Below are positions 6,970 through 29,420 of a DNA stretch of 64,000 nucleotides, one piece after another. Under the pieces are notes generated by a model. That model was not told the DNA's origin. It was given only the letters and a program-made list of their open reading frames with translations, and searched no databases. Position 1 is the stretch's first letter. Every line of letters begins with the position of its first letter. The DNA is from Pseudomonadota bacterium (GTDB taxonomy: Bacteria > Campylobacterota > Campylobacteria > Campylobacterales > Sulfurimonadaceae): contig JAZDQA010000004.1 of NCBI GenBank assembly GCA_043797085.1, positions 75,005-139,004 of the forward strand, written 5' to 3'. The position numbers and the translations under genes were made by a program.

Positions 6970-7043
6970 CGTCATTCCCGCGAAGGCGGGAATCCAGCTT
7001 TGTTTTACGGGGATGGATCCCCGGGTCAAGCCCGAGGATGACG
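6970..7043. repeat. CGTC-type REP-like palindromic heterodimer, copy 1
   Basis: CGTCATTCCCGCGAAGGCGGGAATCCAG (6970-6997) plus inverted TGGATCCCCGGGTCAAGCCCGAGGATGACG (7014-7043). A second copy lies at 25472-25558 in the opposite orientation. Confidence 0.85.
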
Positions 7044-23172: not shown

Positions 23173-24330
23173 ATGAAACGTTGGATATGGGAACAAGATG
23201 CTTATCCTCATTTTACCTATGATTTGAATACGCTTGAACAGTTGATTCAAGAGGTTTCACTGTCGCAAGGGTATCTGATCGCCATCACCCAAACGATGGA
23301 TCAAAACAATATCGCACAAAGACAACTCGAAGCGCTGATGAATGAAGCGATCAGCACCTCCGCAATCGAGGGAGAGATTCTCAATCGTGACAGTGTCAAA
23401 GCCTCTATCCAACGCAAGCTTGGGTTTACAGAGATAGACTCTTCAAAACGAGATATTTCGACCGATTATTTGATAGAAATACTTATCGATGCCAATACGA
23501 ATTACGATCAAGATTTAACGCTTGAACGACTTTTTGGATGGCACAACGCTCTTTTTCCTCGTGGATATAGCGGTCTAAATAAGATCAACGTTGCCACATT
23601 TAGAGGCGAAGAGGATATGGAGATTGTAGGCGGTGCCGCAGGAAAAGAGAAAACATTTTATCTAGCACCACCTAGAACGATGCTCGAAGAGGAGATGAGT
23701 AGATATCTGCATTGGTTTAACGAAACGCCTGCAAGTTTGCTAAAGGCGTGTATCGCCCATCTATGGTTTGTTATTATTCACCCTTTTGATGATGGTAACG
23801 GTCGTATTGCCCGTGCCATCACCGATTTGGTTTTATCAAAAATAGAAAAATCGACCGTGTCGAGACTCTATTCGATGTCAAGTGCAATTAACAGTGATCG
23901 CAAGGGGTATTACCGTGCGTTGGAACAGACAACGGGGTATGTCAGAAAAGAGACCAACCATATGAATATTACCATTTGGTGTAAATGGTTCCTCTCGACA
24001 TTGAATACTGCATTGAGTGATACTAAAAAAAAGCTGGGATATATTGTCCAAAAAACGACGTTTTGGGATAAGTATAGAAATTATGATCTAAATCCAAGAC
24101 AAACTAAAGTGCTTAATAAAATCCTCGATATGGGAGTTGAAAACTTTCAAGGCTCTTTGAGCAAAAAAAAATATATGACAATAGCAGACTCTGCATCCAC
24201 CACTGCCTCAAGAGATATTACACAGTTACTCGAAATAGGGTGTATCCGTCAAATTGAGGGGACGAATGGGAGAAATGTACGTTATGAGATTGTTTTTAGA
24301 ACTGCTCCATGTGGTGTAGAGGAACAGTAG
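23173..24330 (+). CDS. Fic-family protein (DUF4172-type N-terminus, C-terminal HTH)
   Basis: MKRWIWEQDAYPHF start, intact Fic motif HPFDDGNGRIAR, TAIEGE, C-terminal TASRDITQLLEIG HTH. Confidence 0.92.
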   Translation: MKRWIWEQDAYPHFTYDLNTLEQLIQEVSLSQGYLIAITQTMDQNNIAQRQLEALMNEAISTSAIEGEILNRDSVKASIQRKLGFTEIDSSKRDISTDYLIEILIDANTNYDQDLTLERLFGWHNALFPRGYSGLNKINVATFRGEEDMEIVGGAAGKEKTFYLAPPRTMLEEEMSRYLHWFNETPASLLKACIAHLWFVIIHPFDDGNGRIARAITDLVLSKIEKSTVSRLYSMSSAINSDRKGYYRALEQTTGYVRKETNHMNITIWCKWFLSTLNTALSDTKKKLGYIVQKTTFWDKYRNYDLNPRQTKVLNKILDMGVENFQGSLSKKKYMTIADSASTTASRDITQLLEIGCIRQIEGTNGRNVRYEIVFRTAPCGVEEQ

Positions 24331-24425: not shown

Positions 24426-24725
24426 TTATTTAGCGATATAAGCGGCGATAGAAGTGATTTGAGCATCACTAAGCGTTGCTGCTTGTCCTTTCATGACCGC
24501 TTTCATCGGTCCGCCGTAGGTTCCAGCTTTGTACCCTTTGAGTGCGGTGATAATACCTGCAGCTCCCATATCTTTTATGATTTTACTTTTCCCAAGTGCC
24601 ACTTTTTCACCTGCGGCACCGTGACACGCTGCACATTTTTTGTACAAATCTGCACCTTCATCTGCCATAACACTAACACTGCCAAGCCCTAATAAGGCAA
24701 CGAATACCAAAATACTTTTTTTCAT
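24426..24725 (-). CDS. cytochrome c553-type periplasmic monoheme cytochrome
   Basis: Signal peptide, CAACH, YGGPMKAVM Met ligand region. Confidence 0.92.
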   Translation of the reverse strand: MKKSILVFVALLGLGSVSVMADEGADLYKKCAACHGAAGEKVALGKSKIIKDMGAAGIITALKGYKAGTYGGPMKAVMKGQAATLSDAQITSIAAYIAK

Positions 24726-24801: not shown

Positions 24802-25467
24802 TTACGATCGTAGGGTTATATGCGGGGCTAGTCTTTCATAGTCAACACGACGATTTGATGATGAAAGGTTTCCTATCGTTTTCATTCCCCCTTGAAAAAT
24901 CTGTACGTAATATTCGCGATTATATCCCCTACGCTTTAAGATCTTTGCCATGGTGATAATATCTTCTTCGTCTAGCAATTCTGGATGAAATGTTGTTCGT
25001 ACTTCAAAATCAATGCCACTATGATGAAGTATTTTAAAACTCTCCCAAAAACGTTTTTCGCTTCCGCCACCGCAGATTTCCCCCATTTTTGCTTCAGGGG
25101 CTTTGTAGTCTAGGGCAATATAATCAATAAGTTTGTTGTCGATTAGCACTTTAATCACATCAGGACGCATACCGTTGGTGTCGAGTTTGATTTTATATCC
25201 CAGTGTTTTTATAGAACGACAAAAAGCCAGAAGATGAGGGTAGGTCGTGCATTCGCCGCCACTAAGTACGACGCCTTCCAGCAGTCCTTGGCGACGGCGT
25301 AAAAAAGCAAGCGCTTCCTCTTCATCTATATGTGCAGTACCGAATACAATATCAGGATTGTAGCAGTAAACGCATCGCAGATTGCACCCTGCAAACCAAA
25401 AAATAGCCGCAGGAGTGTCGGGGAAATCGAGAAGGGTAAACGGGGTGATGTCGTAGAGTGCTTTCAT
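24802..25467 (-). CDS. nrdG: anaerobic ribonucleotide reductase activating enzyme (radical SAM)
   Basis: GCNLRCVYCYNP (CxxxCxxC), SGGE, KLDTNG; downstream of nrdD. Confidence 0.92.
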   Translation of the reverse strand: MKALYDITPFTLLDFPDTPAAIFWFAGCNLRCVYCYNPDIVFGTAHIDEEEALAFLRRRQGLLEGVVLSGGECTTYPHLLAFCRSIKTLGYKIKLDTNGMRPDVIKVLIDNKLIDYIALDYKAPEAKMGEICGGGSEKRFWESFKILHHSGIDFEVRTTFHPELLDEEDIITMAKILKRRGYNREYYVQIFQGGMKTIGNLSSSNRRVDYERLAPHITLRS

Positions 25468-25471
25468 GTTT

Positions 25472-25558
25472 CGTCATCCTCGGGCTTGACCCGGGGATCC
25501 ATCCCCTTTTTCATTCACAAAAATACTAAGCTGGATTCCCGCCTACGCGGGAATGACA
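25472..25558. repeat. CGTC-type REP-like palindromic heterodimer, copy 2
   Basis: CGTCATCCTCGGGCTTGACCCGGGGATCCA...CTGGATTCCCGCCTACGCGGGAATGACA, the reverse complement of the 6970-7043 element with a longer spacer. Confidence 0.85.
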
Positions 25559-25583
25559 GAGTGCTATAGGAAATAATATCTTG

Positions 25584-25748
25584 CTAGCTGGCTTTTAAAC
25601 ACTCTTTAAAATACATTCGATCTTTATGCTCTTGTTTTTTTCCGATATTAAAACTCTCGACGGGGCGATGATACCCCATCACTCTTGTGTACACCATACA
25701 ACGTGTTCGTTTGCTTTCTTGGCTTTTCAGCACCATTTCTGTATTCAT
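25584..25748 (-). CDS. stand-alone glycyl-radical domain of class III RNR (54 aa)
   Basis: Manual translation MNTEMVLKSQESKRTRCMVYTRVMGYHRPVESFNIGKKQEHKDRMYFKECLKAS. ATGA overlap with the nrdD stop; strong SD AAGGAGGT just upstream. Confidence 0.88.
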   Translation of the reverse strand: MNTEMVLKSQESKRTRCMVYTRVMGYHRPVESFNIGKKQEHKDRMYFKECLKAS

Positions 25749-27847
25749 GCAACCTCCTTGGATAAGATTAATTCGTCACATTTCGGGCAAAACTCATGTT
25801 CGCCGTGTAGATAGCCGTGCATCGGACACACAGAAAAAAGCGGTGTGATGGTGATATAGGGCAATCGGTGATGAGTTAAGACATTTTTGACCATCCGTCT
25901 ACATGCTTCGATGGTTCCGATGCGCTCACTCATATAGAGATGCAACACCGTTCCCCCTGTATATTTACACTGAAGTTCGTCTTGGAGTTCCAGTGCCTCA
26001 AAGGGGTCGTCGGTATAGGCAACTGGGATTTGGGAGCTGTTGGTGTAATAAATGTTGTCACCTTCTCCTGCTTGTAAAATGTCGGGATAACGTTTTTTAT
26101 CCTCTTTGGCAAAACGATACGTCGTCCCCTCGGCGGGTGTTGCTTCCAGATTGTACAAATTACCGCTGCGCTCTTGATAACCTCGGATGATATTACGCAT
26201 TTTTTCTAAAATATCCAGTGAAAACTCCACTCCCCATGCAGTGGATAAATCCTCTGTATCACCGCTAAAATTACGAACCATTTCGTTCATCCCGTTGACT
26301 CCGATGGTGGAAAAATGGTTATTGAATCCTTTTAAATAGCGTGCAGTATAAGGATAAAGTCCCCGCTCGAACATCTCGTTTACAAAGACTCGCTTTTTCT
26401 CCAGCGTTGAATAGGCAATTTCCATTAGCACATCCAGTGCCTCAAAAAACCGATCTTTATCTCCCGTGTACAAATAGCCTAAGCGTGCCATATTGATGGT
26501 AACGACGCCGATGCTTCCCGTCATTTCGGCACTGCCGAACAGTCCATTTCCACGCTTTAGAAGTTCTCGCAAATCAAGCTGTAAGCGACAGCACATACTG
26601 CGTACCGCTCCCGGTTTATATGCATTGGGGTTTTCTATTTTATTTCCATTTTCATCTTTTAGATATTGGCTGCCGATAAAGTTTTGAAAATAGCTCGAAC
26701 CGATTTTGGCAGTGTTTTCGAACAAAATATCGGTGTTTTCACCGTACCAGTCGAAATCTTCGGTGATATTGACCGTGGGGATTGGGAACGTAAAGGGCTG
26801 TCCGCCACTGTCGCCCTCGGTCATAATCTCATAGTAGGCTTTGTTAATAACGTTCATCTCTGCTTGAAAGTCACCGTATGTCAGGGCTTCGAGAGAATGT
26901 TTTCCTCTCTCAAATAACTTGCGTTGATGATGTGCGGTTGCACTGATTTGCGAAAAAAGATGGTGATCATTATAGGTGGGAATTTGCCCCGCTAAATCCT
27001 CAGGAACAACCCAGTCGAGGGTAATATTCGTAAAAGGAGATTGTCCCCAGCGGGCTGGGACGTTGAGATTGTAGACAAAACTTCGTATCGCTTTTTTCAC
27101 ATCATCCGCACTCAAAGCATCGATAAATACATAAGGAGCCAAATAGGTATCGAATGAGCTAAATGCTTGAGCTCCTGCCCATTCGGATTGCAGTATTCCT
27201 AAAAAATTTGCCATTTGTCCCAATGCTTCACGCAAATGACGGGGAGGTGCGCTCTCAACACGTCCTCGAACGCCGTTAAACCCTTCGTTGAGCAATGCAC
27301 GTAAACTCCATCCGGCACAATATCCCGTCAGACAATCAAGATCGTGGATATGGATATCACCATTGCGATGAGCCGCTCCCTCTTGGGGTGAGTAGATGGT
27401 ATCGAGCCAAAAGTTTGCAACTACTTTTCCTGCTAGATTGTTGATAAGTCCTGCATTGGAATATCCTGTATTGGCATTGGCATTGATGCGCCAGTCCGTT
27501 TTATAGATGTATTCCTGAACGCTTTGGGTGGAGTTTACGAATGTGGTGTCGGGTAATAAACCTGCGACGTGTTCACGCTGCATTTTGTGTAAAAATCGGT
27601 AAGTGATAAACGATTTCATCACCGTAAACTCACCCGAATTATGGAGCTCTTCTTCGATGATGTCTTGAATCTCTTCTACATTCCAAAGAGGCTTGGTCTC
27701 TAATCTCTCTAAAAGACATTTTAGTGCGATTTGATTGTAGGGGCGTGAGACACTTTCAAACCCTTTTTTGATTGCATCTACAATCTTATAGAGATGAAAG
27801 AGTTCTGTTGATCCATCGCGTTTACAAACACGTCTAGCTACCCCCAT
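25745..27847 (-). CDS. nrdD: class III (anaerobic) ribonucleoside-triphosphate reductase, large chain lacking the glycyl-radical loop
   Basis: N-terminal ATP cone (KRDGS), IHDL..GYCAG, RSMCCRL finger loop, EATPAEG. Ends at the CPMH...CPKC metal site with no RVxGY. Confidence 0.93.
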   Translation of the reverse strand: MGVARRVCKRDGSTELFHLYKIVDAIKKGFESVSRPYNQIALKCLLERLETKPLWNVEEIQDIIEEELHNSGEFTVMKSFITYRFLHKMQREHVAGLLPDTTFVNSTQSVQEYIYKTDWRINANANTGYSNAGLINNLAGKVVANFWLDTIYSPQEGAAHRNGDIHIHDLDCLTGYCAGWSLRALLNEGFNGVRGRVESAPPRHLREALGQMANFLGILQSEWAGAQAFSSFDTYLAPYVFIDALSADDVKKAIRSFVYNLNVPARWGQSPFTNITLDWVVPEDLAGQIPTYNDHHLFSQISATAHHQRKLFERGKHSLEALTYGDFQAEMNVINKAYYEIMTEGDSGGQPFTFPIPTVNITEDFDWYGENTDILFENTAKIGSSYFQNFIGSQYLKDENGNKIENPNAYKPGAVRSMCCRLQLDLRELLKRGNGLFGSAEMTGSIGVVTINMARLGYLYTGDKDRFFEALDVLMEIAYSTLEKKRVFVNEMFERGLYPYTARYLKGFNNHFSTIGVNGMNEMVRNFSGDTEDLSTAWGVEFSLDILEKMRNIIRGYQERSGNLYNLEATPAEGTTYRFAKEDKKRYPDILQAGEGDNIYYTNSSQIPVAYTDDPFEALELQDELQCKYTGGTVLHLYMSERIGTIEACRRMVKNVLTHHRLPYITITPLFSVCPMHGYLHGEHEFCPKCDELILSKEVA

Positions 27848-27932
27848 TGTTGTTCCTTTTTTTAGAATTTATATCCGGCTTAACGCCGTATTTTTAGATA
27901 GTTAATTGTAATGGATTTGGGGATTAATGTCT

Positions 27933-27946
27933 TTGACTTGGGTCAA
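27933..27946 (-). promoter_or_regulatory. Fnr/Nss-type box, nrdD promoter
   Basis: TTGAC-TTGG-GTCAA; minus-strand TACAAT at 27905-27910 (22 nt gap). Confidence 0.8.
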
Positions 27947-28043: not shown

Positions 28044-28064
28044 TAAAAAAGGCCCGAAGGCCCT
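28044..28064 (-). terminator. rho-independent terminator of the porin gene
   Basis: Minus strand AGGGCC-UUCG-GGCCUU followed by a U tract. Confidence 0.85.
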
Positions 28065-28076
28065 GAGGAGAAAGTA

Positions 28077-29420
28077 TTAGAATTTTAAAGAAGCGATAAC
28101 ACGGAAAGTATCCGTAGTTTTGTCATTATTATCATTAGCTTTAACATCTTTATCAAACTGAGTATAGATAGCGGTTAAATCAACAGCTCCAACTTTTGTA
28201 GCTGCGGTAACATCCCATGCAGTAAAGTCTGTATTTTGAGTACTAAGACCTGCTACTAAACCTGCTGTTCCACCATTGTTACCAGTCTCTGCTTGTGCAT
28301 AACTAGCTGACAATGCAACACCTGGAACCATCTTAGTAGAAGCACCGATTTTCCATGCATCTGTATCCGGTGCTGCTGCAATCTCGCCATCCATATAGAT
28401 ACTACCTAAAGTAGTATACACACTTGATTTATCACCTGTTGCAACGTTCGCAAAACCTAAAGTACCGGCACTAACTGTTGAATATGCTGCATAAAGATTT
28501 ACACCTGCAATATCAACCGCAGCTTTAAGTGCAAATACATCAGTATTTCTATCAGCTGCACCTGTTCCAACATCTGGCATCATGCCTGCGTATTGAACAC
28601 CGATATTAACCATGTCGATAACTTTTGTGTCTGCTTGCAACCAGTATGCATCCGCAACTTGAACAACATCATAATACCATGCTTGTACAGTTGTATTTGG
28701 AAGTGATTTATTGACAGCTGCAAATGCATACGCGCCATCGGTTGCGAATGTACTAAAAGTACCATCTTTTGCGACGGTTGTATTACGACCAGTTACGAGA
28801 GGTCCTGCAGCATCTGGATCACCCAATAAACCAACACCATTATGCTTTCCAACCCATGCAGCTACCAACGTTGTATTAGGAAGGTCATTATTTAACAATA
28901 CTGCCGCTTCAAACGTGTTATCTACAACGTTCCATGTTTCTGTAAATGCAAGTGGAGTATTCAATGCTTGACGACCGATTTTAGCCGTAGTTTTTCCAGC
29001 AGTGTAAGCCAAATACGCTTCTTCTACCCATGCTTGGTCATTCAATGATGACATATCACCACCAACAGCTGTATTTTGATAATTTGTACCATCTGCACCA
29101 ACTTTAGCCGTTGTAGTCGATCCAACCAAATTATTTTCAAGACCAAGCGTAGAAATAGCTGTTACTTTTACCCCAGCGCTAAGATTTTGCAGCAAATCAG
29201 CTGTAGCACCAACGCTTAATTTCACATCAGCGGATGAGTTAGCAGTATTGTCAAAAAAGCCTTGTGCAGCTGTTGCAGCAGGAACAGCTGTAGCTCCTCC
29301 AGAATACTCAGATGTCTGATACCAAAGCTTTGCCTCACCATTTACTTTTACGTTATCAATCGCGAACGCACTTGTTCCCAATGCCATTACGGCTACTAGA
29401 CTTAATTTTACGAGTTTCAT
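28077..29420 (-). CDS. major outer membrane porin (Campylobacterota MOMP-like)
   Basis: MKLVKLSLVA signal peptide, amphipathic beta strands, KIGRQALNTPL, C-terminal Phe. Confidence 0.85.
   Translation of the reverse strand: MKLVKLSLVAVMALGTSAFAIDNVKVNGEAKLWYQTSEYSGGATAVPAATAAQGFFDNTANSSADVKLSVGATADLLQNLSAGVKVTAISTLGLENNLVGSTTTAKVGADGTNYQNTAVGGDMSSLNDQAWVEEAYLAYTAGKTTAKIGRQALNTPLAFTETWNVVDNTFEAAVLLNNDLPNTTLVAAWVGKHNGVGLLGDPDAAGPLVTGRNTTVAKDGTFSTFATDGAYAFAAVNKSLPNTTVQAWYYDVVQVADAYWLQADTKVIDMVNIGVQYAGMMPDVGTGAADRNTDVFALKAAVDIAGVNLYAAYSTVSAGTLGFANVATGDKSSVYTTLGSIYMDGEIAAAPDTDAWKIGASTKMVPGVALSASYAQAETGNNGGTAGLVAGLSTQNTDFTAWDVTAATKVGAVDLTAIYTQFDKDVKANDNNDKTTDTFRVIASLKF

Follow-up and report, generated by a model that had tools for sequence, protein, structure and literature searches.

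Separate genes for the catalytic core and the glycyl-radical loop of a class III ribonucleotide reductase in Sulfurimonadaceae and other bacteria

To our knowledge, every glycyl radical enzyme that has been studied structurally or biochemically carries its radical glycine on the large catalytic chain. In the class III ribonucleotide reductases of bacteriophage T4, Thermotoga maritima and Prevotella copri, the barrel encloses the glycyl loop beside the finger loop, and the loop must flip out for hydrogen abstraction by the activase NrdG; the last barrel strand is followed by a zinc ribbon and then by this loop (PMC4493059, PMC12662201). Autonomous glycyl radical cofactors are described as spare parts for pyruvate formate-lyase (PFL), namely GrcA (YfiD) of Escherichia coli and Y06I of phage T4 (PMC8683613). 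A 2026 review gives the formate lyases as the only glycyl radical enzymes with known spare-part proteins (PMC13450708), and the 2021 YfiD paper merely speculates on further ones (PMC8683613). Here we describe a class III reductase locus in a 64,000-nucleotide (nt) window of contig JAZDQA010000004.1 (assembly GCA_043797085.1; Campylobacterota; Sulfurimonadaceae), to which all coordinates below refer. Its catalytic core and glycyl loop are encoded by separate genes, nrdD and a 54-residue open reading frame (ORF), followed by nrdG. The locus very probably encodes a naturally two-chain class III enzyme of the RNRdb NrdDh4/NF006126 type, in which the radical loop would act in trans after being charged by NrdG.

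The core gene nrdD (27847..25745, minus strand) encodes a 700-residue protein composed of an ATP-cone (residues 6–88), the NRDD barrel, a finger-loop region containing SMCCRL and a terminal zinc ribbon. It matches Pfam NRDD over model positions 2–528 of 562 (531 bits; cut-off 26.2), with an additional ATP-cone match, NF006126 over positions 3–649 of 684 (1049 bits; cut-off 548) and TIGR02487 (411 bits; cut-off 326), and its barrel lies above the curated cut-offs for class III NrdD. The predicted zinc ribbon, CPMH-x9-CPKC, closes the chain and corresponds in the alignment to CxxC...CPKC in P. copri NrdD. The protein ends as ...CPMHGYLHGEHEFCPKCDELILSKEVA*, with the stop 10 residues past the ribbon and without a glycyl loop; aligned to P. 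copri NrdD (8p23), it covers residues 7–704 of 743, and the final ~39 residues are absent. The initial annotation had described an NrdD with an ATP cone and a terminal metal site that lacks the loop, and the family-model and P. copri alignments bear this out.

The adjoining small ORF (25748..25584, minus strand) has the 54-residue translation MNTEMVLKSQESKRTRCMVYTRVMGYHRPVESFNIGKKQEHKDRMYFKECLKAS, which contains the TRVMGY motif with Gly24 and a conserved tail, HRPVESFNIGKKQEH. It matches NRDD at positions 531–562 of 562 and NF006126 at 649–682 of 684, and within Pfam it matches PF13597 alone. The model coordinates of the two ORFs adjoin, and one family model is therefore shared exactly between them. 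The RVxGY motif is thus missing from the C-terminus of the catalytic chain and present in the two-chain system, on the 54-residue ORF. A phmmer search of the peptide against PDB sequences gave no match even at E = 10. Ahead of the finger loop, the large chain carries an MCCR variant of the SCCR motif (...AVRSMCCRLQLD...). Following the SCCR/MCCR definition of the RNRdb NrdDh groups (PMC4493059), the core is placed in NrdDh4 by its MCCR motif alone. A relative in NrdDh3, another of these groups, uses thioredoxin as reductant, and by analogy the reductant here may therefore be thioredoxin rather than formate.

The start codon of the small ORF overlaps the TGA stop of nrdD in the sequence GCATGA, a 4-nt ATGA overlap. 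Its Shine–Dalgarno (SD) sequence, AAGGAGGT (25752..25759, minus strand), lies within the final nrdD codons, 3 nt before the ATG, and is the strongest of the operon: the duplex energy with the 3′ end of 16S rRNA is −12.6 kcal/mol, compared with −5.6 for nrdD and −7.8 for nrdG. The corresponding medians over 19–25 Campylobacterota loci are −8.7, −6.9 and −2.9 kcal/mol, and in Campylobacterota relatives the small ORF has an AAGGAG-type SD in front of it. The cognate activase gene nrdG (25467..24802, minus strand) starts 116 nt downstream and encodes a 221-residue radical S-adenosylmethionine protein that matches TIGR02495 (NrdG2; 202.6 bits, cut-off 131) and Radical_SAM. The arrangement is as first proposed from the sequence, with a separate ORF at 25584–25748 that bears the radical motif, a strong SD and an ATGA overlap and is followed by nrdG. 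The genome encodes a single class III system, one loop-less NrdD core and one peptide, and also a class I NrdA. There is no full-length NrdD with its own glycyl loop in the genome, and the peptide would therefore be the primary and only radical carrier. The PFL-type Gly_radical family (PF01228) has no match anywhere in the genome.

Homologues of the peptide are found as stand-alone short proteins in large numbers. A 90%-clustered protein collection holds 1763 of them (30–95 residues), the Cupriavidus necator peptide has 6185 homologues, and 1550 matches occur among 1.84 billion 50%-identity representatives, the best 150 of which are all 49–145 residues long. Their common core reads ERT[RK]C.V[WY]TRVMGYHRPV..FN.GK..EH..R. 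Among the genomes of 41 relatives, 20 contain the peptide, always as a short open frame of 55–116 residues. A scan of one genome per GTDB species yielded at least 583 matching species, and none of the best 80 reference-genome loci from these is fused. Twelve of 12 relatives are likewise split, in agreement with the earlier view of an autonomous radical peptide rather than a gene fragment or an indel. The order core–peptide–nrdG is present at 75 of the 80 reference loci, and nrdG lies downstream of the small ORF at all 75 loci that have an upstream core. Core homologues are 75–100% identical. For the 37-codon peptide core of 21 Sulfuricurvum loci, the median ratio of nonsynonymous to synonymous substitution (dN/dS) is 0.064, at a saturated dS of 1.45, and both parts are under strong purifying selection.

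The carriers span Campylobacterota, Bacteroidota, Balneolota and Beta/Gammaproteobacteria. They include Sulfuricurvum, Sulfurimonas, Sulfurospirillum, Arcobacteraceae, Campylobacter, Helicobacter and Nautiliaceae in the first of these groups, and Flavobacterium, Algoriphagus, Chitinophaga, Niabella, Parapedobacter, Saprospiraceae and Balneolaceae in the Bacteroidota and Balneolota. Plasmid records add Ralstonia, C. necator, Bradyrhizobium, Paracoccus, Allochromatium, Thiothrix and Aquabacterium, and Ca. Thiodictyon is a further carrier. The same layout is annotated in Sulfuricurvum kujiense, Ralstonia solanacearum and C. necator, where the H16 copy, a 66-residue ORF on pHG1, is identical. Some RefSeq records label the small ORF ‘anaerobic ribonucleoside-triphosphate reductase’ (gene nrdD); in others it is a hypothetical protein or an oxidoreductase, or is missed.

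One cysteine of the peptide, Cys17 (25698–25700, minus strand), lies 7–8 residues before the radical glycine and is invariant in a 48-sequence alignment (46 stand-alone peptides and two read-through rows). The same cysteine is conserved in fused NF006126 relatives; E. coli NrdD presumably has a valine at this position. We considered whether the peptide cysteine completes the zinc site across the two chains and rejected the idea, because the core already has four ligands of the T. maritima NrdD (TmNrdD) type and the cysteine is equally kept in fused relatives.

Fused forms are rare. In 300 Campylobacterota genomes, the family scores above cut-off in 146 and continues uninterrupted through the glycyl loop in only two, both of them truly fused genes with a 6–8-residue linker. 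In a maximum-likelihood tree of 57 core subunits, a Campylobacterota clade stands opposite a clade of Bacteroidota and Balneolota, both broadly matching taxonomy, and far outside them are the split Ralstonia and Cupriavidus proteins and the fused Acidiphilium and Actinomyces proteins, which lack the ATP-cone. The two fused Campylobacterota genes are nested within split clades (support 100/100 and 100/99) and are therefore re-fusions. Most simply, an old fission would have been followed by occasional re-fusions in which both tails were deleted. All of these fused relatives (Acidiphilium, Actinomyces and the two Campylobacterota) have the loop C[ETM]V[WY]TRVMGY[HFY]RP[VI], joined by a short linker and nearly identical to the loop of split genes, indicating that the peptide is orthologous to a working glycyl loop. 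The split architecture is real, ancient and widespread.

Two unusual frames were seen among the relatives. One of the re-fused proteins (L101; Campylobacterota genome G215, C1:385119-387794) is 893 residues long, with an insertion of ~160 residues that divides the ATP-cone into two matched stretches. In a long-read metagenome-assembled genome (MAG) of Flavobacterium (L040), the zinc ribbon and glycyl loop share one 97-residue frame, but upstream of it the gene is interrupted, which probably reflects an assembly indel error and not a true fusion.

The peptide gene also occurs away from the core. In the Sulfuricurvum genome G331 (L021/L148–L149, contig C12), which belongs to the same genus as the present window, nrdD is followed directly by nrdG and a cytochrome c gene. 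Its only peptide gene lies ~6 kb from nrdD, after a Crp/Fnr regulator gene and flanked by norCB and by nirS, the gene for cytochrome cd1 nitrite reductase. This lone gene (L021) was also considered as a prophage gene, which we rejected: PHROGs gave no match, and the Pfam-identified neighbours are nirS and norCB. Two uncultured Campylobacter genomes, G332 and G333 (L146–L147, L150–L155), each have a single core nrdD with neither peptide nor nrdG as a neighbour. The peptide is paired with nrdG elsewhere: in G333 the pair lies 175 kb away on the contig of the core, and in G332 it is on a different contig. Each genome also has two additional lone peptide genes, giving three peptide copies per core. 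These lone genes closely resemble phage-borne copies and are probably themselves carried by prophages.

Intact relatives of the peptide are encoded on 42 IMG/VR viral contigs, 41 of which have no core and no nrdG within 6 kb by tblastn. At 15 viral loci, 146 neighbouring ORFs match 251 PHROG families, including those of the terminase large subunit, the major head protein, tail fibres, holins and internal virion proteins. At one viral locus (L118), the peptide gene matches phrog_4132 and is positioned between a spanin-like gene and internal virion/DNA-ejection genes. A tblastn search of deposited phage genomes (INPHARED) gave no match to the peptide, and the phage copies come from IMG/VR only. 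The core, with its ten-stranded barrel, and the ~35-residue glycyl-radical loop are therefore encoded by two separate genes, the smaller with its own ribosome-binding site, which may overlap, be spaced, lie kilobases apart or be found on phage.

These arrangements suggest how a two-chain enzyme would operate. The 54-residue protein would be translated separately, and NrdG would abstract a hydrogen atom from Gly24 of the free peptide. A free peptide as the NrdG substrate fits the peptide–nrdG pairs located apart from the core gene. The charged peptide would then insert its loop into the core barrel and pass the radical to the finger-loop cysteine, and reduction of the nucleoside triphosphate would begin. 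The core would keep the zinc ribbon, which would serve for docking or for contact with the activase. The core tail DELILSKEVA and the peptide N-terminus MNTEMVLKSQES are both variable and may represent the two ends of the 8–12-residue linker of fused relatives.

An exchangeable peptide would explain the extra stand-alone copies in phages and in some genomes. It is tempting, though we hold the idea only tentatively, to view the peptide as a consumable radical cartridge: charged by NrdG, it would plug into the barrel, be cut at its glycine by oxygen or nitric oxide (NO), and be ejected and replaced while the 700-residue core survives. On the same tentative footing, phages, prophages and denitrification clusters might carry extra peptide genes that sustain deoxynucleotide (dNTP) synthesis. 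Lone phage copies, three copies per core and the strongest SD on the small ORF lend circumstantial support to exchange and leave the question about evenly poised. The initial annotation had proposed a cheap, exchangeable part that limits oxygen damage; that circumstantial support can be claimed for it, but the split itself is dispensable, as two lineages have re-fused. Its specific link to microaerophily is made less likely by the very different lifestyles of other carriers of the split, among them Nautiliaceae, Flavobacterium, Cupriavidus, Ralstonia and purple sulfur bacteria.

Several points weigh against a two-chain enzyme with an exchangeable radical part. The enzyme is known here from its genes alone, and exchange and repair are deduced from gene distribution only; it is conceivable that the phage-borne peptides are inhibitory. 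The nearly invariant cysteine before the glycine has no role that the two-chain model accounts for. AlphaFold2 was run, with 102 unpaired alignment rows, on a read-through pseudo-fusion from the relative L079, in which only one TAA interrupts the common frame of the two ORFs. The mean predicted local distance difference test score (pLDDT) was 69, falling below 50 for residues 722–757, which include the glycyl loop, so the model supports no conclusion on docking. The two independent re-fusions within split clades indicate that the fused state works equally well, and the split may be selectively neutral. Carriers also have very diverse lifestyles, which argues against the exchangeable part in particular.

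The main rival to an exchangeable part is neutral gene fission, in which the peptide is a stably bound, obligate 1:1 subunit that acts like a cis loop, without exchange or repair, and extra copies are incidental or have some other function. We consider this explanation possible but rather doubtful. It agrees with re-fusion in two lineages without obvious consequence, with the loop sequence shared by fused relatives and with the wide range of oxygen lifestyles among carriers. Also in its favour, tight overlap or translational coupling is more frequent than any other arrangement, and 75 of 80 loci are syntenic. However, the split has been kept across at least four phyla, with two fused genes among the 146 Campylobacterota genomes, although re-fusion needs just a small deletion. 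Nor does neutral fission sit easily with the 41 viral contigs that retain an intact, conserved peptide gene alone, or with genomes that contain three peptide genes for each core and place the peptide beside nrdG rather than beside the core.

The geometry of the junction bears on a second alternative, that programmed recoding (a −1/+2 frameshift, or stop read-through where the frames coincide) produces a single-chain NrdD. At the present locus, the 4-nt overlap and the strong SD-like sequence just before the stop recall some frameshift sites, and in one large Campylobacter genus both ORFs share a frame and only a lone TAA separates them. Even so, recoding is highly improbable. No slippery sequence is present at the junction, and frame, overlap and gap vary by lineage. 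The ATGA overlap is shared by this locus, many Sulfuricurvum and Ralstonia; other Campylobacterota have gaps of 2–22 nt between core and peptide ORFs; and overlaps of +8 to +26 nt occur among the reference loci, those of Bacteroidota being 17–26 nt without an SD. In C. necator, a 142-nt spacer has stops in all frames, and the peptide gene has its own SD, AAGAAGGAG. Because all three relative frames, spacers and unlinked positions occur across lineages, no conserved recoding site is possible, and no single recoding signal could serve all junction types. Peptide gene and core lie 6 kb apart in G331 and 175 kb apart in G333 and occupy separate contigs in G332, and phage copies lack any core gene. 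All small ORFs have kept an ATG of their own, and those of Campylobacterota an SD as well. Of the features that the initial annotation proposed to check across Campylobacterota, the split and the SD recur, but the ATGA overlap gives way elsewhere to gaps, same-frame TAA codons and unlinked genes.

That the split stems from an indel in sequencing or assembly, or from decay of a formerly fused nrdD into a pseudogene, is scarcely credible: this is a MAG-type assembly of 14 contigs, and frame disruptions do occur in the nanopore-derived Flavobacterium MAG, but independent projects have yielded complete genomes and plasmids with the identical architecture, thousands of independent sequences carry it, both parts are under strong purifying selection, and the enzyme is the only one of class III in its genome.

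Returning to the two-chain operon at the present locus, the region upstream of nrdD contains a putative FNR/CRP/Nss-type box, TTGACCCAAGTCAA (27933..27946, minus strand), with a perfect TTGA-N6-TCAA sequence. It lies exactly 22 nt upstream of TACAAT, the −10-like hexamer of the predicted nrdD promoter (27905..27910, minus strand; promoter-like site 27933–27905). A terminator-like hairpin of the upstream gene is located at 28064–28049 (minus strand). The spacing of box and hexamer suggests a class II activated promoter of the FNR/Nss type and an operon within an anoxia/nitrate/NO regulon. With the box at −41.5, expression would probably respond to anoxia, nitrate or NO, and the class I enzyme would serve aerobic growth. 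A c-type cytochrome gene (24426..24725, minus strand; 99 residues, Cytochrom_C match) is a conserved neighbour downstream of nrdG in Sulfuricurvum, and the nrdG–cytochrome order is also found in S. kujiense pSULKU01, where napA is next, and in G331. Taken together, the FNR-type box, the adjoining cytochrome c and nap genes and the nirS–norCB location in G331 point to expression during nitrate/NO respiration.

The 116-nt spacer between the small ORF and nrdG (25468..25583, minus strand) contains an element resembling repetitive extragenic palindromic (REP) sequences, with a hairpin core at 25534–25556. In relatives the small ORF directly abuts or overlaps nrdG, and the spacer here is therefore a local insertion within the operon. 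The REP-like element has the form TCATTCCCGCG-N3-GCGGGAATC, and a second copy is located 18.5 kb away at 6972–6994 (plus strand), against a chance expectation of 0. The operon is flanked by a gene for a DUF4172-Fic family protein (23173–24330, plus strand) and by a gene for a 447-residue protein without a Pfam match (28077–29420, minus strand). The latter has a signal-like N-terminus and a C-terminal Phe and is possibly an outer-membrane porin.

Our literature search, whose coverage excluded some potentially relevant older work, found no paper that describes or tests a split NrdD. The small ORF goes unmentioned in the 2015 definition of NrdDh1–4 (PMC4493059), the 2022 ribonucleotide reductase family analyses, the 2024–2025 structural papers and the RNRdb paper. 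The initial annotation knew of no functional characterization of this architecture, and the search agrees. The architecture appears to be unreported, though databases register the small ORF. It explains hundreds of nrdD annotations that read ‘hypothetical’, ‘oxidoreductase’ or fragment-like, and expressing only the annotated nrdD and nrdG of a carrier probably yields an inactive enzyme. The lone phage peptide genes make up a new class of phage auxiliary gene. If the peptide does serve as a cartridge, no earlier glycyl radical enzyme would be known to keep its radical normally on a separate, exchangeable subunit, and no earlier spare-part system would lie beyond the formate lyases. The split would offer a natural system for studying activase access to a buried glycine, off-enzyme charging and anaerobic DNA-precursor synthesis under pulses of oxygen or NO. 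The layout is directly testable, as it occurs in the genetically tractable C. necator H16, Flavobacterium johnsoniae and S. kujiense.

Among the closest known systems are the single-chain NrdDh enzymes with their NrdG, such as TmNrdD (PDB 4COI/4U3E) and Neisseria bacilliformis NrdD, which match the same NF006126, TIGR02487 and PF13597 models. The present system shares with the TmNrdD type the SCCR/MCCR double-cysteine region, the Cys/His/Cys/Cys zinc ribbon, the RVxGY motif and an NrdG2-type activase (PMC4493059). In the single chains the glycyl loop is the covalent C-terminus, whereas here it is the product of a separate 54-residue gene. A C-terminal module encoded by a separate, adjacent gene is also seen in the split class II reductase NrdJa/NrdJb of Pseudomonas aeruginosa (PMC9669993, PMC4860495). 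That enzyme belongs to the adenosylcobalamin class, however, and its separated part is a large zinc-finger/IscU-like reducing domain rather than the radical-bearing element. Benzylsuccinate synthase (beta and gamma) and 4-hydroxyphenylacetate decarboxylase (gamma) likewise pair a large glycyl-radical barrel subunit with small proteins that bind to it. We know of no case in which these small subunits carry the glycyl radical; they have Fe–S clusters or structural roles.

The functional parallel drawn at the outset with GrcA survives in part. Like GrcA and Y06I, the peptide is a small stand-alone glycyl-loop protein that would be expected to be charged by an activase and to act in trans on a barrel, and both systems have a phage-borne version. 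The free-standing gene with an intact radical motif is observed directly; charging and action in trans would follow by analogy. GrcA is homologous to the PFL C-terminus (Gly_radical) and supplements full-length PFL only after cleavage by oxygen. The peptide described here is not a PFL-type Gly_radical domain but matches NRDD only, and there is no coexisting full-length NrdD for it to repair. Where GrcA serves as a supplement to an intact parent enzyme, this peptide would be the sole and primary radical carrier of its genome.

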